A DNA stretch of 64,000 nt from a virus. A program made the position numbers and the translations under genes. The stretch lies in IMG/VR virus record IMGVR_UViG_3300013132_000034, positions 33,368 through 97,367 of that record; one strand, given 5' to 3'. Below, piece by piece: positions 37,622 to 64,000 of the stretch. The notes under the pieces were generated by a model that was given only the letters and a program-made list of their open reading frames with translations, did no database searches and was not told where the DNA came from. Within the stretch, counting starts at the first letter, position 1. The number at the start of each line of letters is the position of its first letter.

Positions 37622-38038
37622 TTATATGTCTTTTTTTTTATTATCAAGAGCTTCTCTTAATTTAAATACTTCTGATTCTAATGAAATTACTTTGCGATAA
37701 ACATCGTCTATTTTTTGAAAAATTTCATTTAAATCATATTTTTTATCGAATGGTAAAAGCAATTGATCATCATTTACATTAGGAGCTGCTACAGTAACAG
37801 TTTGTAATACTGGTTGATGGCTAGGCTGTACCGCTTGTTGCTGTTGCGCATGTGATATTGGATTTATACCTTTAGATAAATCATGTTCTAGAGCAACTTT
37901 TTTAATGTCAAGGGATTCAGGTCTAATACGACCATCAATAATTTTTGAATCAATCTCATTAAGAGAACCTTTTACAGCGCCAAGAAAACTAACTAATGCT
38001 AAATTTTCTTGATATTCTTCCTGTGGTGTTTTAGTCAT
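37622..38038 (-). CDS. Hypothetical protein with QLLLPF motif and C-terminal coiled coil
   Basis: 138-aa ORF between gp32 and the clamp. Confidence 0.7.
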   Translation of the reverse strand: MTKTPQEEYQENLALVSFLGAVKGSLNEIDSKIIDGRIRPESLDIKKVALEHDLSKGINPISHAQQQQAVQPSHQPVLQTVTVAAPNVNDDQLLLPFDKKYDLNEIFQKIDDVYRKVISLESEVFKLREALDNKKKDI

Positions 38039-38873
38039 CTATACCATCTAAAAGTCTCTTAACTTCATCGTCATCAACTGCAGTTGTATCGGTGGTTGGT
38101 GATGCGGCAAGAGCGGGCTCTCTAGTAGAACTTTTCTTAGTATCAACAGACTCATCATTATTAGCTTCTATACATAGAAAATGTTCATCGAGAAGCTTCT
38201 TAAGATCATCATACGATTTTACTGGATTGATCTTCGCAAGATCATGTACACCATTAAGGACTTCTTTAATATTCTTATCATTTAAACTATCGATTGCCTT
38301 AGGCATAGAAAACTTAGAAGACACATATGTCTTGTATCCACCTTGTGTTTCACAAACTATCTTTAAATTAACACCATCAGATTTGAGCGAGAAAACACGA
38401 GGACCAAGGTCGTCAGCATCATCACCATCGATAGCGCGCATAACAATCTTGTGAAGTTGTTTACCGAACTGCAATATTTTAACTTTACCATTGTTATCAG
38501 GGTTAGTTGGGTCTTCAACTACATAAACATTAACTAACCATCTCTCTGCCCAAACTAATGAACTAGCTTTCTTCTTTTCATCTTCTGTACCGGAACGAAG
38601 AAGTTTGTATTTGAGTTCAGAGATTGGATCGCGTTCACCAAATGTTGATGGAGAAATAGCAGAAATAAATTTACCGGTAGCATAACTATTCCAGGAATGC
38701 TGAAAGTAATGAAAAAAGGTTTTTGACGGATCTGTAATATTAGGTAGAAGTCTAACAACATAAGTTTTATCAGATTCCATTCGCAGAATGTCGCGGTAAG
38801 ATGAATTGGTAGAATCCTGTCTAACAAGAGCGGTTTTTATACTTTCAAACATTGACTTGGTGATATCGTTCAT
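38031..38873 (-). CDS. Single-stranded DNA-binding protein (gp32-like)
   Basis: VRLLP, NVYVVEDPTNPDNNGKVKILQFGKQL, YVSSKF, KSYDDLK; acidic tail. Confidence 0.9.
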   Translation of the reverse strand: MNDITKSMFESIKTALVRQDSTNSSYRDILRMESDKTYVVRLLPNITDPSKTFFHYFQHSWNSYATGKFISAISPSTFGERDPISELKYKLLRSGTEDEKKKASSLVWAERWLVNVYVVEDPTNPDNNGKVKILQFGKQLHKIVMRAIDGDDADDLGPRVFSLKSDGVNLKIVCETQGGYKTYVSSKFSMPKAIDSLNDKNIKEVLNGVHDLAKINPVKSYDDLKKLLDEHFLCIEANNDESVDTKKSSTREPALAASPTTDTTAVDDDEVKRLLDGIDD

Positions 38874-38879
38874 AAGAAT

Positions 38880-38907
38880 ATAATAGTATGTTTTATATAA
38901 ATATCAA
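38880..38907 (-). promoter_or_regulatory. Sigma70-type promoter for gp32
   Basis: TTGATA-16 nt-TATTAT-6 nt-ATG(38873). Confidence 0.7.
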
Positions 38908-39536
38908 GCAATTTTCTTTAAACCTTCTCTTACTAATATTTTAAGTTTTTTAGACCTAATAAAATTATTATAAATATTGTCAGTATTTTCTAAAATGTTG
39001 CCTAAAATAAATTTATATGTTTCAAAATGTTTGTTAAGTTTAGCGACTGCATTGGTATATCCCATAACAGTATAAAGATTTATTTTATGTTCTTGTAAAT
39101 GTGTGATAAATGAAGGTAATGTTTCATCATTTTTAGTATAATCTAAATAATTTAAAACGCTTATATTATTTTCTTTGCAAAATTGTTTAATGAATTTAAT
39201 TGAATCTAATGTGTATTTTAGACAATCTTCACTATCCGGGTTACATGACTCGTTTTGATTTTTGTAAAGATTATATGCTTTTATAGCTTTAGGGCTTATA
39301 AAATACTTTAGGTCGAAAAATTTTTCGTCTTTATAAATTTTATATGGCGCATTAAAAAAATCATCTATATTAATTTTTTTAAATTTATTAAAAAATAAGC
39401 TTAGTTTTTTTACATAAAAAACAGTACTATCATCTAAGTCAGAAAAGTCTTTTCTTAAATTATAAGGTTTATTATTATTTTTTTTGTAACAGCTTAGATG
39501 TTTATTGTAAATAAATTTTTCGAAATCATTAAGCAT
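38904..39536 (-). CDS. Hypothetical protein, possibly gp59-like helicase loader
   Basis: 210 aa, upstream of gp32 as gp59 is in T4; similarity is weak. Confidence 0.5.
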   Translation of the reverse strand: MLNDFEKFIYNKHLSCYKKNNNKPYNLRKDFSDLDDSTVFYVKKLSLFFNKFKKINIDDFFNAPYKIYKDEKFFDLKYFISPKAIKAYNLYKNQNESCNPDSEDCLKYTLDSIKFIKQFCKENNISVLNYLDYTKNDETLPSFITHLQEHKINLYTVMGYTNAVAKLNKHFETYKFILGNILENTDNIYNNFIRSKKLKILVREGLKKIA

Positions 39537-39738
39537 TATAAAACTTCCACTTAAACCTAGATCTCTCTTTTTTAAGCTTCTTTAAGACTGAAGGTTTAGA
39601 CACTCTTCTCCTATATCTTAAATCCTCGAGAACTTCTGATTGCTTAACTTGTTTTATGAATGCGTTAAGTTTTTTATCAAAATATTCCTTATTGGTTGCT
39701 TTTTTTGTATCTAATTTTACTTCTGCGTTTATTCTCAT
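39529..39738 (-). CDS. rpsU: Phage-encoded ribosomal protein bS21 (divergent)
   Basis: 69 aa, basic; FDKKLNAFIKQVKQSEVLEDLRYRRRVSKPSVLKK aligns by eye with the bS21 pattern F..AL.RF...V...G.L...R.R....KPS..RK. Confidence 0.75.
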   Translation of the reverse strand: MRINAEVKLDTKKATNKEYFDKKLNAFIKQVKQSEVLEDLRYRRRVSKPSVLKKLKKERSRFKWKFYNA

Positions 39739-40016
39739 GGTTTTTCTCTATTAAGGTATTTCATTATGTATTTGCTCTTATATAATGTAGGATCAAATTC
39801 AAAGAATATTTTAAATGCATTGTAATCATTATCCACTTCTAAAACTTGTTTTAATAATTTTTTGACACCTTCATTTTTTAGGCAGAGCAAAAATATGTTT
39901 GCGAGGTTTAATTTCTTACCATTAGTTAAATAGATAAATGTACAAAAAGAAAGAAAATTATGCATAGTTTCAGATTCAACTAACTTATACGACGGATTAA
40001 GTTCGCGTATGTTCAT
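39735..40016 (-). CDS. Hypothetical protein
   Basis: 93-aa ORF, ATGA-coupled to bS21. Confidence 0.7.
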   Translation of the reverse strand: MNIRELNPSYKLVESETMHNFLSFCTFIYLTNGKKLNLANIFLLCLKNEGVKKLLKQVLEVDNDYNAFKIFFEFDPTLYKSKYIMKYLNREKP

Positions 40017-40893
40017 TTAAAGGAAAAAATTTCTTGGTAGCTTCCAGTATGTTTTCGTTAATTGAGCTGTATGCTGCATACTCGGTGCCATAGCCTGAAA
40101 AACATTTATTTACTAAATCACCTAAATCAACATTTAAATTTTTATTCTTCCTAAAATGAGCTGTTTTCTTTTCTAAATCTAGTACTAAGGCAATATCATA
40201 TCCTTTTTTAAGTATTTTATGTGCTGCTTCGTTTTTAAATTTATTACAAAAAGTAGATACAGTGTTGTAGTTTTTACCGTCAAAAAGCAAGTTGCCTTTA
40301 AAAAGTCTTAATCCTTTGAGAGTAATAGCTAGTTCTTTTAAAATTATATTAATTTTGCTATTCTCTGATTCTGTAAAGATTATAACACCAGAATTAAATT
40401 TTTTTATAAATGCCTCTACTTTATTAAAATCGGGCAATGTTTTGAAATAGTAGAACAATTTTAAAGGTGTCAAATCTTCATTAAATTCGAACGTCAAATA
40501 GCTCTTGACATTATTGAGGAATATAAGTTGATTATTTGTTATCACATTATTAGAATGTGCTTTAAACAATTTTATAAATTGTTCTAATGTAGTAATACTA
40601 TCTGCAGATAGTATATGTGCATTTTTAAGTTTTGGTAAATCTATCAATTTTTTATTAATAATGTAAATATTTTTTTTATCTAAATCATTACTAAAATTTT
40701 TAAAATTATAAAATCCAACAACATATACAAATTTAAATTGTTCAAAATCTAATTTTTTTAAATCATTATACAGATTATTTTCGGTTGAAACAACAACAGT
40801 AATATTTTCTTTCTGTGTAAACCATTTAAACGACAGTATACACGTTGCAGCTTCAATGTTTGAGGGCACTACAAAACAGTATTTATCCGTCAT
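39997..40893 (-). CDS. Degenerate DHH/DHHA1 phosphoesterase-like protein
   Basis: DHH-family layout with eroded motifs (SNIEAA for DxDG, IINKK for IDHH, GYGTEYAA for GGGHxxAA; HFRK..VDLG retained). Confidence 0.55.
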   Translation of the reverse strand: MTDKYCFVVPSNIEAATCILSFKWFTQKENITVVVSTENNLYNDLKKLDFEQFKFVYVVGFYNFKNFSNDLDKKNIYIINKKLIDLPKLKNAHILSADSITTLEQFIKLFKAHSNNVITNNQLIFLNNVKSYLTFEFNEDLTPLKLFYYFKTLPDFNKVEAFIKKFNSGVIIFTESENSKINIILKELAITLKGLRLFKGNLLFDGKNYNTVSTFCNKFKNEAAHKILKKGYDIALVLDLEKKTAHFRKNKNLNVDLGDLVNKCFSGYGTEYAAYSSINENILEATKKFFPLNEHTRT

Positions 40894-40924
40894 TATTTAA
40901 TTATTTAGGAAATATCAATTATAA

Positions 40925-42259
40925 TCAATTATTATCTGCAAGAACTTTTAGGGTTGACGTCAAAGAATTACTTTCGTCCGTATCATTTATAGTGTCATCC
41001 TGGGTTATAGATAATGTGGGGTAATCTATTCTCAATAAAACGTTTCCGAAATTAGGGCCAAATCTGTTCTTCATCATACCTAGATGAATTACGCCTAATT
41101 CTCTTTCTTCATCTGTTTGAAAAATACTCATAACTACATCGGCGGTAGCTGCAAGACCTATACTTTCACTAATAGTAGCAATAGAGGGGTCATTCTCACT
41201 ATAGCCAGATCTGTTTAATTGAGTAGCTGAAATAATAGGGCAATTAAAAATATACGACATTGCTCTTATTTTTTCTGTTACATATTTTACTCTCTCATAT
41301 GAATTAGTGCCTGTAGAAGAATGAAGAAGGTTGAGATAGTCAATTACAATAGCGTCTATTTTAATACCTTTAGAAAGAAATTTTTTTATAAATGCATTTA
41401 ATTGTAATGGAGTAACTGTTGAGGGTGGAAATTCTTTTACATATATTTTTGCGTTAGGATTTTTTCTATTAAATTCGTCTATACCGATTTTTAATTGTTC
41501 TTGTTCACCTTTTAATCTAAAAAGAGGAATTTTAGTTAAGTTAGATGATAAGCGTTTTGCATAAATCAATTCTGGCATTTCAAGTGAAATAATGAGAACT
41601 GTTTTATTTTGCTTAGCTATATTAACAGCAATATTTGCTAAGAAAATAGATTTTCCGATATTAGTTTCACCTGCAAATACATATAATGACCTACCATTTT
41701 CTTGTAACCCCCCACCAATTCTATGGTCTATCCAAGGGTAACCAGTGGTAATATAATTTTCAACCTTATTAAGATCATCAACAATAGCTTGAGAGTTAGA
41801 TAAAATTTCAATACCGAGATCTACCGACAAATTTATGCTACAAGATGATTCAAATTTTTGTAATATTTCTGATGTATTTATTTCACCCTTTGTACACTTA
41901 TCAGCTACTTCTAGCATAGTGGTATATACGGCTTTTTCCTTTAAAAACCGCTCAGTATTTTTATAAAGTTCATCTTCATTAAAATTTTTGTCAATATCTT
42001 TAAATTTTGATATCGCTTCTTTAAAATTGTCTTTAAGCTTATCTGTGTTTAAATATGCTTTAACTTCAGTTAGAGTGGGTACTGTACCAGTTTTGATGTA
42101 AAATTCGCGAATTATAGAAAAAATACTTTTGATATTTTTATCTTTAAAATAGGTCGGTTTTAAGTGATCAGCAATAGAACCTAAATACTTTTCATCAGTA
42201 AGTGATTTGTATAGTACAATATGCTCGAAGTAATCTAGATCTAGTTCTCTATCTTGCAT
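40925..42259 (-). CDS. Replicative DnaB-like helicase (gp41-like)
   Basis: AGETNIGKS, ISLEM, KEFPP, IVIDYLNL, SATQLNRSGY, SESIGL, KNRFG. Confidence 0.95.
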   Translation of the reverse strand: MQDRELDLDYFEHIVLYKSLTDEKYLGSIADHLKPTYFKDKNIKSIFSIIREFYIKTGTVPTLTEVKAYLNTDKLKDNFKEAISKFKDIDKNFNEDELYKNTERFLKEKAVYTTMLEVADKCTKGEINTSEILQKFESSCSINLSVDLGIEILSNSQAIVDDLNKVENYITTGYPWIDHRIGGGLQENGRSLYVFAGETNIGKSIFLANIAVNIAKQNKTVLIISLEMPELIYAKRLSSNLTKIPLFRLKGEQEQLKIGIDEFNRKNPNAKIYVKEFPPSTVTPLQLNAFIKKFLSKGIKIDAIVIDYLNLLHSSTGTNSYERVKYVTEKIRAMSYIFNCPIISATQLNRSGYSENDPSIATISESIGLAATADVVMSIFQTDEERELGVIHLGMMKNRFGPNFGNVLLRIDYPTLSITQDDTINDTDESNSLTSTLKVLADNN

Positions 42260-52518: not shown

Positions 52519-53564
52519 TTTAGTTTTTTATACAGCTCTACTGTATAATCTATTATCTCTTTTTTATTATTAATGTCAAGTATATTAACAAATTCTTCTA
52601 TTGCTTTAGGTATATCAACTCCGGAAAAATCACAATTATTTTCGTTACTAATACTGAATTTATTAAAGTTTGCTGCGTAGTCTACATTAATAGAGACCGG
52701 TTTAAGTATTGAAAGTTTCTTTAATAAGAAGTCAATTTCATCAGCTGTTATATTTTTATCAACAACAAATTTAACTATATTGTTGTTAAAGCTATCCTTA
52801 ACTTTATCAGTAATACCATTTTCTTTAACAAGCTCAGAAAGATATATTTTCTTATGCTTAGGATAGCAATTATTTTCAATAAATTCATATTTTAATGAAT
52901 CTAAGTCTAATATATGCACACCTTTCAAACTATCTACATCACCGAAATCCATTTGGAAAGGCGAACCAAGATATAATATAGTACCATCAGAATAAGTCCT
53001 TTCGTCTTTGAGATGGAAATGACCTGATATAATTAGTTTAGATTTTTCTAAAAGAGATGAAGCTTTAATACCGTGATCACAAATTTTATGACTATTCATT
53101 TTAAATGATTCGATTTCAAAGTGACCAAACATTATATCGCACTCTGGTATATGATTAATTTCAGTGCCCCAAGGTACAAATACTAAATTTTTATTGAAAT
53201 TACGTGATGCGAGTACTTGTGAAATAACTTTTATGTTGGGCCAGCCACTAAAGGGAGTTAATGAATTGATATCGGACCGATCTTTATAATATGCGTCATG
53301 GTTACCGACTAACATTACTATATTAAAATCTTTAAGTTTTTCTAAAAGTTTTGACGCTAAATGTATAGTATTAACGGAAATTTCGTCTCTATAATGAAAC
53401 AAGTCACCGCAAATTACAATATCTGTTATTTCTCTTTCTTTTAGTTCTTTACTAATCCAAGAAAAAAACTTTTCTGCAACATCGTACCAAAATATATTGT
53501 TTTGATGTACTCCTATATGAACATCAGAAAAACAACATATTTTCTTATTATTAATCTTAACCAT
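52515..53564 (-). CDS. Recombination endonuclease nuclease subunit (gp47/Mre11-like)
   Basis: SDVHIG, GDLFH, GNHD, GHFE, SGHFH, YLGSP. Confidence 0.95.
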   Translation of the reverse strand: MVKINNKKICCFSDVHIGVHQNNIFWYDVAEKFFSWISKELKEREITDIVICGDLFHYRDEISVNTIHLASKLLEKLKDFNIVMLVGNHDAYYKDRSDINSLTPFSGWPNIKVISQVLASRNFNKNLVFVPWGTEINHIPECDIMFGHFEIESFKMNSHKICDHGIKASSLLEKSKLIISGHFHLKDERTYSDGTILYLGSPFQMDFGDVDSLKGVHILDLDSLKYEFIENNCYPKHKKIYLSELVKENGITDKVKDSFNNNIVKFVVDKNITADEIDFLLKKLSILKPVSINVDYAANFNKFSISNENNCDFSGVDIPKAIEEFVNILDINNKKEIIDYTVELYKKLK

Positions 53565-54060
53565 TTAAGTTTGTAAAAATATCATTACTACCATCATCAG
53601 TTTCGTCAGTGGGTTTAATGTATATTTTTGCACCATCCGGACAAGAATGTAAGAGGTCTGAGTAAACTTTTTCCTTATAATCGTTAATAGCATCATGGTG
53701 TTTTTTTTCCTTTTTAATTCTATTTATAAATGCGTGAAATGCAATAGTTGTAAAGTATGAGAATGGGCTAAACCCGCTATTAATTTTAAATTTTTTATTT
53801 TTTAATGCGGAAAACATTTTTACAATAGCATCACCAACCATATCATCTTTATAGGTATAATTAATAAAATTAGGCGCATAACTTAAACCATGTGCTATTT
53901 TTGTTATTGACTCTCCTAATTTTTGTGAAATTGTACCTGCTTTATAGTAGATAACAATCTCATCCTCAAACTCTTTCGGATTGACGTAGAAAGGCTTTTC
54001 TTTTTTAACTTTCTTTTTCGGTGAAATCTCTGGCTGTGTAGTTGATTTTTTCTTTTTCAT
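53557..54060 (-). CDS. Late-transcription sigma factor (gp55-like)
   Basis: YVNPKEF, IAHGLSYAPNFINYTYKDDMVGDA, PFSYFTTIAFHAFINRIKKEKK. Confidence 0.93.
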   Translation of the reverse strand: MKKKKSTTQPEISPKKKVKKEKPFYVNPKEFEDEIVIYYKAGTISQKLGESITKIAHGLSYAPNFINYTYKDDMVGDAIVKMFSALKNKKFKINSGFSPFSYFTTIAFHAFINRIKKEKKHHDAINDYKEKVYSDLLHSCPDGAKIYIKPTDETDDGSNDIFTNLNG

Positions 54061-60428: not shown

Positions 60429-63400
60429 ATGAATATTATTTTTCCTAATATACCGCCTTACAGCAACTATAATTTTGTTGTTATAGGTGGAGTTACGTAT
60501 TATAATACTACTGCAAAATCTATTTTACAACAAGGTAATTTTAATAATGTAAATGTTGTTTCAATAACACCAACAGCAACCCCATCTAATACACCTACCT
60601 TTACTATTACACCAACAAATACAATTACAAATACAAAAACACCAACCTCTACACCTACTAATACTAATACAAGCACAAAAACTAACACACCAACTAGCAC
60701 GGTGACACATACAAGCACTACAACACCAACAAATACCCCTACACTTACTTACACAACAACTCCAACAATAACTTTAACTGTCAATTTCACACCTTCACCA
60801 ACATCAACATCAACAAATACACCTACACCAACAAATACACCATCCTTTACACCAACGCAAACAAAAACACCACAAAAAACACCGACAAAAACAAGAACAC
60901 CAACATTAACACCAACAAATACAACTACAAATACAAAAACACCAACCACTACACCATCGTTAACTTCAACCATAATGTCAACGTTTATATGTGTTTCAGG
61001 TGCAGGAAATCAAATATTTAACGGATCTTTTGGTCCCCTATATTATGACAGTGGTGTGTGGATTTATGAAAGTGTAATAGCGCCTGGACTATCGGGTGCA
61101 TATGCATTGTCCCCAGCCCTGCCAAATAGTACATGGGCATTTTATATTTTTAAGAATGAACCACCATTTGAAACAGATATTATATATCAAAATGCTACGC
61201 AAGGTGAAATGATACCTTCGACCGGGTGGGTTGCAGTTAATAGCGTTAATGATCCAGCGCCAGAAATATATCAGGGATTATGCACTCCGACTTTAACATT
61301 AACACCTACTGAAACTCCTACAACAACACCTACTGTTACAAACACTGTATCAAATGGAACAACTCCGTCGGTTACACCTACTCAAACACCAACACCTACT
61401 CTTACACCAACAATTCCTGAAACACCTACCCTCACACCAACAAACACAATTACTACTACACAAACACCTACCTTTACTATTACAGAAACACCTACTAATA
61501 CATTAACCAATACAATTACTCAAACACCTACTCAAACACCAACACCTACTCTTACACCAACAAACACAATTACTACTACACAAACACCCACTTTTACTAA
61601 TACCTCAACACCAACTATAACCATGACACATACAGGCTTATCAAACAATTTATGTGTTGAAGGAGCGGGTATTAACTTGTTTAATGGAACTTATAATTTA
61701 ATTCAAGGACCAAGCTATTATGTTTATGAAGGTCCTCTAATCCCTGGAGTTTCGGGAGTGTATGCATTCTGGCCTAAGACAAGCCCGGAGCAGGCATGGA
61801 ATTTCTATATTTACAGAGACTACCCCCCATATTTTACACAACTAATATATACAAACCCAATTAGCGGTAATATAATTCCACAGACAGGTTGGGCCGCGGT
61901 AACTGTAAATGCAATACCACCGATGTCAAGTGTTATAGCTAGTGCTTGTTTTCCAACTCCTACTTTAACACCAACAAACACAATTACTACTACACAAACA
62001 CCTACCTTTACTATTACAGAAACACCTACTAATACATTAACCAATACAATTACTCAAACACCTACCTTTACTATTACACCAACAATTACTAATACAATTA
62101 CTCAAACACCTACCCTCACACCAACAATTCCTGAAACACCTACCCTCACACCAACATTTACACAAACCCCATCAATAACTCCAACCACAACAATCTCACC
62201 CACACAGACTCCTTCCACTACTAAGCCTCAATATTTGTTTTATAATTCTGAAGGTGAAATAAAGAATGTTAATAATAGTTCGTACCCAAGCTATTTAGTA
62301 ATTTCAACAGCAGTATTAAATTTTAGTGCATCAATTGATAATCATATATTAGGGTTTACAAATTATTTTGATGTAAACAATTTTAACAATTGTTATGTCG
62401 AACTTTCTTATAATACCTCAGAATTATCAGCCAATAAAACAACAATATATATTACAGACTCTTGTGAAATTTCATCGTATGAAAATAATTTCTATACATT
62501 TCTGTATTCTAATACTGGGTCATTATTGTTAGGTATTGCGCTTGCAGATGTAGATTTACCGCCAATAGATCAAATACCGCCAACACCCACATTTACACCG
62601 ACAAATGAACCGACACCAACATTTACTCCTACTGCATCTTATACTCCTTCAGTAACTATAACACAAACTTCAACAATTACACAATCAGTAACACTTACTC
62701 GTTCTGTTACACCCACAATAACACCAACCAGCAATACACCTACTCCAACACCTACTCAAACTATTACAAATACATCTACCCCAACAAACACACCTACACA
62801 AACTATTACTCAAACTCCAACACAGACCAATACACCAACACAGACTACAACCCCAACACAAACAATTACTCAAACTCCAACACAGACTCAGTATACGTTT
62901 TTAAGTATAGATTCGAATAGCTTATTAGTTCAAAATATAACTTCTGTTTTTAACTGTAATGGTTATAATGGTAAAGGCATAATTTATTACCCTATTAGCG
63001 ATACAATTCCATTTGCAGGAAAATTTACAGATTCTAATTTTATTAGTTGGGATGTTTATTATAATCCTCCTCTCTCATCATTTAATTTACCTAACTCAAC
63101 AATCACTTCATGTAAGCTAAAATATATTAATTTTGTAGGGTGGGAAATTATTATGACAATATCAAGAGTATGTGATGATAATATAGGTGGTTTTTCTGTA
63201 TTTGCTGAAAACGATCTTCAAACCTCTGCATTCGGTATACCTGCAAACAAATGGAGAGGCCGTGATATTGATAATACGTATTTAGGAGATTTATTGATCA
63301 TACCAAACACACCTTCTATAACACAAACACCTACACAGACCAATACCCCAACCGTAACTCCTTCTGTAACTCCTACTAATACTGTCACACCTTCTATTAC

Positions 63401-64000
63401 TCCTACAGAAACAGTAACACCATCTGTTACTCCAACTATTACACCAACACTTACTATTACACCTACTGAAACAGAAACTCCTACTCCTACCCCAACTGCT
63501 TCTGTAACCCCTACAATTACTGCTTCTATCACCCCTACTGAAACTGTAACTCCTACGATTACTATTACACCTTCAATTACTCCAACAATTTCAGTAACAC
63601 CAACAATTACTCCTACACCTACAGAGACACCAACCAACACACCTACAGAAACTCCAACATCTACACAAACCAGAACACCTACTCCTACCCCTACAACCAC
63701 AAATCCAGTATATACTATTTGGAATGAAAGCATAAACGGACCTCTTTCTAATTCTGCAGGCTCGCCAACTGTTGTAACTTTAAATAACGGTAACGGCTTA
63801 GTTATTGCTTCTGTAGTAGGCGGCGGCCCTGGAAATAATGATTACTTTACGTTCACTGTAGGGAATAATCAAATATTAAATAAAATTCTTCTTAGAAGTT
63901 ACAGTTCTTCTGATAATGTTGCTTGGTTGGGTATTCAATCTGGTTCTGCATGGACTGCAGGAAATAATCCTGGCTTAATGTTAGCTCAACAACATTTTGG
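60429..64000 (+). CDS. Partial large mucin-like Thr/Pro-rich modular adhesin/tail-fibre protein
   Basis: Not in the ORF track because it has no stop before the window end; frame checked at 60429, 60963, 61650 and 63903; PT tracts separate globular domains. Confidence 0.8.
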   Translation, partial: MNIIFPNIPPYSNYNFVVIGGVTYYNTTAKSILQQGNFNNVNVVSITPTATPSNTPTFTITPTNTITNTKTPTSTPTNTNTSTKTNTPTSTVTHTSTTTPTNTPTLTYTTTPTITLTVNFTPSPTSTSTNTPTPTNTPSFTPTQTKTPQKTPTKTRTPTLTPTNTTTNTKTPTTTPSLTSTIMSTFICVSGAGNQIFNGSFGPLYYDSGVWIYESVIAPGLSGAYALSPALPNSTWAFYIFKNEPPFETDIIYQNATQGEMIPSTGWVAVNSVNDPAPEIYQGLCTPTLTLTPTETPTTTPTVTNTVSNGTTPSVTPTQTPTPTLTPTIPETPTLTPTNTITTTQTPTFTITETPTNTLTNTITQTPTQTPTPTLTPTNTITTTQTPTFTNTSTPTITMTHTGLSNNLCVEGAGINLFNGTYNLIQGPSYYVYEGPLIPGVSGVYAFWPKTSPEQAWNFYIYRDYPPYFTQLIYTNPISGNIIPQTGWAAVTVNAIPPMSSVIASACFPTPTLTPTNTITTTQTPTFTITETPTNTLTNTITQTPTFTITPTITNTITQTPTLTPTIPETPTLTPTFTQTPSITPTTTISPTQTPSTTKPQYLFYNSEGEIKNVNNSSYPSYLVISTAVLNFSASIDNHILGFTNYFDVNNFNNCYVELSYNTSELSANKTTIYITDSCEISSYENNFYTFLYSNTGSLLLGIALADVDLPPIDQIPPTPTFTPTNEPTPTFTPTASYTPSVTITQTSTITQSVTLTRSVTPTITPTSNTPTPTPTQTITNTSTPTNTPTQTITQTPTQTNTPTQTTTPTQTITQTPTQTQYTFLSIDSNSLLVQNITSVFNCNGYNGKGIIYYPISDTIPFAGKFTDSNFISWDVYYNPPLSSFNLPNSTITSCKLKYINFVGWEIIMTISRVCDDNIGGFSVFAENDLQTSAFGIPANKWRGRDIDNTYLGDLLIIPNTPSITQTPTQTNTPTVTPSVTPTNTVTPSITPTETVTPSVTPTITPTLTITPTETETPTPTPTASVTPTITASITPTETVTPTITITPSITPTISVTPTITPTPTETPTNTPTETPTSTQTRTPTPTPTTTNPVYTIWNESINGPLSNSAGSPTVVTLNNGNGLVIASVVGGGPGNNDYFTFTVGNNQILNKILLRSYSSSDNVAWLGIQSGSAWTAGNNPGLMLAQQHF
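61434..62065 (+). repeat. 98-bp perfect direct repeat (61434-61531 and 61968-62065)
   Basis: Identical acaccaacaaacacaattactactac...actcaaacacctac copies, offset 534 bp (in frame). Confidence 0.85.

Follow-up and report, generated by a model that had tools for sequence, protein, structure and literature searches.

A divergent phage bS21 homologue, probably accessory, in a T4-superfamily clade with predicted leaderless gene starts

Results

A bS21 homologue in a four-gene unit between helicase and gp32

We analysed a 64-kb window (64,000 nt), bases 33368-97367 of the single linear viral contig IMGVR_UViG_3300013132_000034 (97,367 bp, 30.5% G+C), and within it a gene for a 69-amino-acid (aa) homologue of ribosomal protein bS21. 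The gene is the third of four (298 aa, 93 aa, bS21 and 210 aa), which overlap by 20, 4 and 8 nt and lie between genes for a replicative helicase and for the single-strand DNA-binding protein gp32 (Table 1). The protein belongs to a divergent subfamily seen only on viral contigs. Its gene is present or absent at one junction in a clade of phages whose gene starts lack Shine-Dalgarno (SD) signals and, judged by their geometry, are leaderless or translationally coupled with or without the bS21 gene.

Table 1 Features at the bS21 locus, elsewhere in the window and in two relatives
Feature	Position	Strand	Remarks
Divergent phage bS21 homologue, 69 aa, C-terminal RFKWKFYNA	39529-39738	(-)	Profile, family and motif evidence
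Unit's predicted promoter region	40894-40928	(-)	TTGATT (40928-40923), 15-nt spacer, TAAATA (40907-40902), 8 nt, ATG
298-aa protein, first gene of the unit	39997-40893	(-)	Possible DHH/DHHA1 (NrnB-like) phosphoesterase, lead only
Conserved 93-aa protein, no assigned function	39735-40016	(-)	Stop TGA overlaps bS21 ATG (ATGA)
Conserved 210-aa protein directly upstream of gp32	38904-39536	(-)	Overlaps bS21 end by 8 nt
DnaB/gp41-type replicative helicase, upstream neighbour of the unit	40925-42259	(-)	
gp32 single-strand DNA-binding protein, downstream neighbour of the unit	38031-38873	(-)	Own early-type promoter
gp55-type late sigma factor	53557-54060	(-)	phrog_234, E 2.4e-26
Canonical-type bS21 in two relatives (records G007 and G006)	L150:1495-1677 and L151:1495-1677		

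Identity of the bS21 homologue

The 69-aa open reading frame encodes a genuine bS21 homologue, which belongs to a divergent subfamily. Two database searches retrieved 13 relatives of 66-81 aa, giving a family of 14, and all 14 members match PF01165 at E<=0.01 (best E 2.4e-8); the relatives in records G011-G014 reach 28-40 bits, above the Pfam cut-off of 27. A profile built from the subfamily matched 32 distinct sequences in the PDB, every one of them bS21, bS21c or bS21m (best E 1.4e-6) and among them the Flavobacterium johnsoniae bS21 chain 7jil_z. An AlphaFold2 model of the 69-aa protein has helices at residues 17-34, 36-45 and 49-66 (predicted local distance difference test, pLDDT, 77.6), and a Foldseek search with this model returned only four rows, weak and non-significant (E>1), all of them bS21 chains.

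The core motifs of bS21, the F..F helix and KPS, are kept in the subfamily. KPS corresponds to K48-P49-S50 in the 69-aa protein, and P49 and S50 are invariant. The tail has a conserved KWK[FY]Y, with K63 and W64 the same in every member and Y67 in almost every one, and three relatives terminate exactly in KWKFY. An earlier reading of the window from its sequence only (hereafter the sequence-only reading) had proposed a divergent bS21 with an aromatic tail, RFKWKFYNA, and had named profile and structure searches as the check on it; both returned bS21 throughout, the structure search below significance. We found this KWKFY-type subfamily on 54 viral contigs, and it was not found in 185,579 species genomes.

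Gene starts without Shine-Dalgarno signals and next to predicted promoter boxes

The contig is a fragment of an uncultured T4-superfamily myovirus. Its T4-type genes include those for a family-B DNA polymerase, a gp41-like helicase, primase, gp32 and UvsX/UvsY, together with a gp46/47-like nuclease, a Dda-like helicase, tail sheath, large terminase and portal. Against every cultured T4-like phage, the DNA polymerase and terminase show only ~30-38% identity, and for that reason no host can be read from them. A near-identity DNA search and a tblastn search with bS21 against cultured phages gave no match. Complete relatives of the contig measure 217-230 kb. A 1190-aa open reading frame (60429-63998, + strand) is unfinished at the contig end and, with the CheckV completeness of 46%, indicates a fragment of a genome of ~200 kb.

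SD motifs were scored as 4-mers at -18 to -4 upstream of starts. They precede five of 107 contig genes where 4.6 are expected, which is background. Gene starts were then classed as coupled, as having an exact TAAATA 3-11 nt upstream (late box), or as having TTG-N15-18-TAnnnT ending 4-8 nt upstream (early box). Among 109 contig genes, 45 are coupled, 31 have a late box and 12 an early box, and the same late and early motifs occur before only 0.24% and 1.3% of internal ATGs. An exact TAAATA ending 5 or 6 nt before the start is found at 21 starts against ~0.25 expected, an excess of ~85-fold.

The pattern extends across the clade. In a set of 2,115 unique gene starts from the relatives and the contig, the early sigma70-type -10 motif peaks at d=6, where d is the distance in nt from the end of the box to the start (162 starts against a baseline of 1-5), and early genes have a -35 TTGA at a fixed spacing of 16-17 nt. 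Late TAAATA boxes peak at d=5 (154), then at d=6 (78). The Bacteroidota motif TAnnTTTG is not enriched in this set. Boxes precede 54-58% of genes that follow a gap of 6-60 nt, whereas among overlapping genes the figures are only 1.9% (late) and 2.6% (early). Because boxes are nearly absent ahead of overlapping genes, they mark operon heads and do not serve as general ribosome-binding sites.

On the contig, TAAATA boxes lie ahead of sheath, structural and tail genes, and the gp55-type protein is their probable reader. A gp55 homologue combined with boxes that lack a -35 element before late genes is the sequence pattern expected of T4-type gp55-dependent late promoters. In T4, roughly one helical turn separates the late box from the downstream transcription start (PMC2988020). 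With a -10 box whose end is 6 nt ahead of the ATG, or a late box one helical turn before +1, the predicted +1 falls on or beside the start codon. The shared spacing of early -35/-10 and late TAAATA boxes is what a promoter reading of both predicts, and a -10 box 5-8 nt before the first start, none before internal genes and no SD is likewise the pattern of a leaderless organisation, as far as sequence can indicate it. That first genes are leaderless and internal genes coupled is thus a prediction well supported by geometry. The sequence-only reading had described an SD-free genome with leaderless or coupled starts, and both parts of this description agree with the counts.

Two phages served as controls. 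Cyanophage S-SM2 has its boxes 16-34 nt ahead of starts, and SD motifs precede 23% of its genes against 9.5% at random; pelagiphage Mosig has scattered boxes that do not abut starts, and SD motifs precede 34% against 4.6%. A leaderless organisation of T4-like phages did not turn up in our literature searches, and by those searches it is apparently new for such phages that early and late T4-type promoters alike are placed at the start codon throughout a clade. At several starts (6097, 24322 and 35024, for example) the TAA of TAAATA serves at the same time as the upstream gene's stop codon (gap 8, d 5), followed by 5 nt and the ATG. Boxes are also found in divergent intergenic regions that have no upstream gene on the same strand.

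Presence and absence of bS21 across relatives

A helicase-based search returned over 400 relatives, and the best 80 were retained. Members of the subfamily are found in two gene contexts. Context A is that of the window, helicase-[298 aa]-93 aa-bS21-210 aa-gp32. In context B, bS21 lies co-directionally beside a gp15-like gene among structural genes and has its own box 4-5 nt before the ATG. Of the loci that span helicase to gp32, 49 carry bS21 and 44 do not; in the latter the 93-aa and 210-aa genes abut without an insert (e.g. L064: 4280/4281).

Loci with and without the gene are alike in SD 4-mers (5.7% vs 5.5%), late boxes (13.1% vs 14.4%) and coupled genes (48.1% vs 47.5%). Thus, we conclude that the gene-start architecture of the clade is independent of the KWKFY-type bS21 gene. 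The sequence-only reading had, as a hypothesis, joined promoter architecture and bS21 into one takeover system and had put forward their co-occurrence as a check. These comparisons do not support the link and in part speak against it, and the SD-using pelagiphage Mosig encodes a canonical bS21 (58.6 bits). As evidence that would tell against the link, the same reading had named relatives that lack bS21 and share the architecture, together with a host that is itself largely leaderless. The 44 loci supply the former.

Two near-complete relatives without the KWKFY type, of 199 kb (91% complete) and 193 kb (88%), carry elsewhere a canonical-type bS21 of 60 aa, with PF01165 scores of 50.7 and 60.8 bits. 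We considered whether the two types are fast-evolving orthologues and rejected this, as their loci differ and their identity is 24% over 37 columns (hhalign probability 32%). Of the 12 clade contigs of at least 100 kb that were examined, 11 have some bS21; at least two lineages and three loci are represented among them. It seems that bS21 was acquired at least twice in the clade. Carriage looks selected, since the two near-complete relatives that lack the KWKFY type carry an unrelated canonical bS21.

A more distant syntenic group, L068-L072, has a helicase 44-53% identical to that of the window. SD motifs are found at 24% of its starts (pooled), start-abutting boxes are absent, and a different 110-aa open reading frame replaces the 93-aa gene and bS21. 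No bS21 was seen in these contigs, which are only 6% fragments. In pelagimyophages bS21 is a core gene (PMC7029224).

The C-terminal tail compared with known bS21 signatures

In F. johnsoniae bS21, S42 is the S of KPS, and Tyr54, 12 residues on, stacks on A1534 and helps to sequester the anti-SD (PMC7797042). Counting 12 residues past the S of KPS, after that study, places Phe62 (S50+12) of the window bS21 at the Tyr54 position. Across the subfamily this position holds F/H/Y in eight of 14 members and N/L/Q/K in the other six. The C-terminal domain of Bacteroidia bS21 is unusually non-basic when set against other phyla (PMC7797042), and that of the subfamily is strongly basic (net charge +6 to +8, isoelectric point (pI) 10.2-11.8). 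The subfamily sequences do not carry the non-basic C-terminal signature of the Bacteroidia-type, anti-SD-sequestering bS21.

The RLY/KLY motif at the C-terminus of gamma- and betaproteobacterial bS21 and of some huge-phage S21 contacts h37/A1167 (Watson et al. 2020, PMC7550191). The subfamily resembles it in a basic-hydrophobic-Tyr sequence (KFY) at or near the C-terminus and differs in its invariant Trp, which has no counterpart there. A contact of the subfamily tail with 16S h37/A1167 is doubtful because only 15-20 residues follow KPS, a stretch ~10 residues shorter than in E. coli bS21.

Promoter, junctions and neighbours of the unit

The sequence ahead of the unit reads as a hybrid promoter, a sigma70 -35 element joined to a gp55-type box, and suggests that the unit is expressed both early and late. 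Relatives share a conserved TTGATT-N15/16-TAAATA whether or not they have bS21. A second TAAATA (40899-40894) directly adjoins the ATG at 40893 and is not conserved in relatives; for this reason the tandem arrangement is incidental, and the promoter belongs to the four-gene unit rather than to bS21. The sequence-only reading had placed tandem TAAATA boxes at 40907-40894 at the head of the unit. Its positions were correct.

The sequence-only reading had bS21 coupled within the unit, as the overlaps and the ATGA junction agree in suggesting. From this junction we predict translational coupling of bS21 to the 93-aa gene, and most context-A relatives keep ATGA, GTGA or TTGA at the bS21 start. Most of them also have a TAAATA 4 nt before an in-frame ATG ~10-12 codons ahead of the bS21 start. 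In the window (39745-39775, - strand), inside the 93-aa gene, the equivalent box reads CAAATA. Such an internal box could be a late promoter that gives a leaderless mini-ORF (open reading frame) coupled into bS21, a reading confounded by conservation of the peptide encoded there.

Of the neighbouring genes, gp32 has a predicted promoter of its own, TTGATA-16-TATTAT, which ends 6 nt before its ATG (about 38907-38880). The 298-aa protein had no match in Pfam or PHROG; Atlas features (0.96) and structural comparison (TM 0.74-0.85 to DHH/NrnB clusters) suggest, as a lead only, a resemblance to DHH/DHHA1 (NrnB/oligoribonuclease-like) phosphoesterases. The 210-aa gene occupies the position of the gp59 helicase loader in T4-like phages, and a gp59-gp32 neighbourhood is seen in S-SM2. 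Searches of Pfam, PHROG and Atlas gave no confident family for its product, a candidate gp59 by position.

Clues to the host

Phage gene-start signals usually mirror those of the host. A Bacteroidota host looks unlikely for this clade, given the lack of a TAnnTTTG -7 motif, the canonical TTGA-16/17-TAnnnT early promoters and the basic bS21 tail. Five clade genomes were searched for the actinophage marker WhiB and the cyanophage marker psbA, and both were absent; the lack of WhiB means that there is no support for an actinobacterial host. No tRNA genes were found on the contig. When the canonical-type bS21 was compared with genomes, there was one match of 44%, on a 3.8-kb contig of a Verrucomicrobiales metagenome-assembled genome, which is too weak to use.

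Discussion

The explanation that best accounts for these observations as a whole, to which we give a probability of roughly 0.6, is that of a viral-only, accessory bS21, expressed without an SD in a clade with leaderless architecture and likely to act at the 30S platform. The gene would be an accessory whose place is a fixed junction among the replication genes of a T4-superfamily myovirus. Its accessory nature is indicated by the clean presence or absence at one junction, the identical architecture in either case, the second location and the second bS21 type. The four-gene unit would be driven by the hybrid promoter, -35 TTGATT with a gp55-type TAAATA, and ribosomes finishing the 93-aa gene would restart at the overlapping ATGA and so make bS21 without an SD. 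Throughout the clade, with or without bS21, boxes 5-6 nt before the first start would yield leaderless or near-leaderless mRNAs whose internal genes are coupled. We infer that the phage bS21 most probably occupies the place of bS21 on the 30S platform of the host and there tunes or maintains initiation while infection proceeds, a role put forward before for other phage bS21s. As part of this explanation, bS21 would be an add-on to the leaderless architecture, neither its cause nor a requirement for it.

Several observations weigh against this account. Taken alone, the 69-aa protein scores 18.6 bits on PF01165 (E 0.0016), and a six-frame search of the contig gave 17 bits for it, both under the Pfam cut-off of 27. 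CheckV puts completeness of the contig at 46%. Some 20% of its gene starts (21 of 109, from naive start calls) fall in neither the coupled nor the boxed class, and the first TAAATA of the unit itself lies 8 nt before the ATG, against a modal 5-6 nt. In one 88%-complete relative, a search of the whole record detected no bS21, which fits an accessory role and weakens the claim that bS21 matters to the clade.

A tighter link between the two features would have the phage bS21 replace the host's and hide or misplace the anti-SD, so that SD-led host mRNAs lose and leaderless or coupled phage mRNAs are translated. It draws on Phe62, which sits where Tyr54 stacks on A1534 in the anti-SD-sequestering Flavobacterium ribosome (PMC7797042). 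It also draws on the invariant aromatic tail, on the occurrence of some bS21, of two unrelated lineages and at three locations, in 11 of 12 large clade contigs, and on the distant SD-using L068-L072 without bS21 in the fragments. We nevertheless consider it unlikely, as 44 loci without the gene at the site have the same architecture, one 88%-complete genome has no bS21 at all, the aromatic at S+12 is replaced by N/L/Q/K in six of 14 members, and phages tend in any case to mirror their hosts' signals. In addition, the C-terminal domain, with its pI of 10.2-11.8, is unlike the less basic Bacteroidia type (PMC7797042), and SD-using pelagimyophages carry bS21 as a core gene (PMC7029224). The phage protein may instead only keep the 30S subunit complete during infection, as bS21 binds late and loosely, and select no class of mRNA. 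That bS21 is exchangeable and by far the commonest phage-encoded ribosomal protein (PMC9976891, PMC6375957), that two unrelated types appear interchangeable in the clade, and that presence is polymorphic while gene-start signals stay unchanged all agree with such a role. The KWKFY subfamily, however, has diverged far from every cellular bS21 and lacks a bacterial counterpart, which suggests a changed function, and the invariant K-W of the tail points to a specific new contact; we hold a role limited to replacement to be possible but rather doubtful.

The remaining two alternatives concern the boxes and the protein in turn. If the AT-rich boxes acted in translation as non-SD signals, as the A-rich motifs of Bacteroidota 'group B' do, the mRNAs would have leaders. 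Motifs other than SD, a few nt ahead of starts, are known from Bacteroidota (PMC6028130), and a TAA shared between box and upstream stop codon (gap 8, d 5) could serve re-initiation at several junctions. Group-B motifs, however, precede all genes (PMC6028130), whereas the boxes precede only 1.9% and 2.6% of overlapping genes; early genes have their -35 TTGA at a fixed 16-17 nt, late genes have a gp55-type box in a phage with a gp55 gene, boxes occur in divergent intergenic regions, and TAnnTTTG is not enriched. Together these make translation signals highly improbable. A bS21 co-opted as a non-ribosomal nucleic-acid-binding protein in replication would suit a very basic protein encoded inside the replication cluster, between helicase and gp32. 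Against this, other subfamily members lie among structural genes under their own late box, so that position is not tied to replication, and the bS21 core motifs are retained; we see scarcely any chance that co-option is the explanation.

The clade offers a natural experiment, in which syntenic phages carry a KWKFY-type bS21, a canonical-type bS21 or none and share the same SD-free layout of start-abutting promoters. Phage-encoded bS21 is widespread and, to our knowledge, its function has never been demonstrated. We place little credence in the bolder proposal that bS21, acquired at least twice and kept at three loci, is an adaptor that would retune the host 30S toward 5'-terminal AUG and re-initiation and away from SD-led host mRNAs. 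If it were true, promoter placement and ribosome composition would be two halves of one takeover strategy.

That a phage bS21 replaces the host's and redirects translation has been proposed repeatedly (PMC6375957, PMC9723584, PMC9976891, PMC7550191). The sequence-only reading had put the takeover idea forward as its best candidate for something undescribed, and the first three of these papers already contain it. What differs here is a viral-only subfamily in a clade with an unusual gene-start architecture. The bS21 of the freshwater, putatively Bacteroidota-infecting myoviruses of Chen et al. 2022 (PMC9723584) is similar in being a small protein of an aquatic myovirus, with a C-terminus conserved within the phage group and a proposed entry into host ribosomes that favours phage mRNAs; the window copy also shares an aromatic at the Tyr54 position. 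Those phages have genomes of 293-331 kb, and their bS21, nearest to Flavobacteriia bS21, is encoded on the reverse strand amid the genes for terminase, capsid and portal. In contrast, the window bS21 is co-directional in a replication cluster, its subfamily is viral-only and strongly basic in the tail, and the early promoters of its clade are of canonical -35/-10 and not Bacteroidota type. We rejected membership in bS21 clades a-e of that study, as the gene context differs and complete relatives of the contig measure 217-230 kb against roughly 300 kb.

Pelagimyophages such as HTVC008M and Mosig (PMC6375957, PMC7029224) are likewise T4-superfamily phages with bS21 as a frequent or core accessory gene, and HTVC008M bS21 was shown to enter ribosomes in E. 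coli (Mizuno et al. 2019, PMC6375957; PMC7029224). Mosig differs in its canonical bS21, SD-led genes and TAAATA boxes that do not abut starts, and late-promoter prediction was unsuccessful in the genomes of the pelagimyophage study. With T4 late transcription (gp55, gp33 and gp45; TATAAATA box; PMC2988020) the clade shares a gp55 homologue and TAAATA-core boxes without a -35 element before structural genes. It departs from T4 in that only 5-6 nt separate the box from the start codon, with no space for a leader or SD. The closest bacterial parallel in layout is the leaderless 'group C' of GeneMarkS-2 (Actinobacteria, Deinococcus-Thermus; PMC6028130), with a -10 box 6-8 nt before the first start of the operon and none before internal genes; here the arrangement is found in T4-like phages, with two promoter classes and a clear -35 element.

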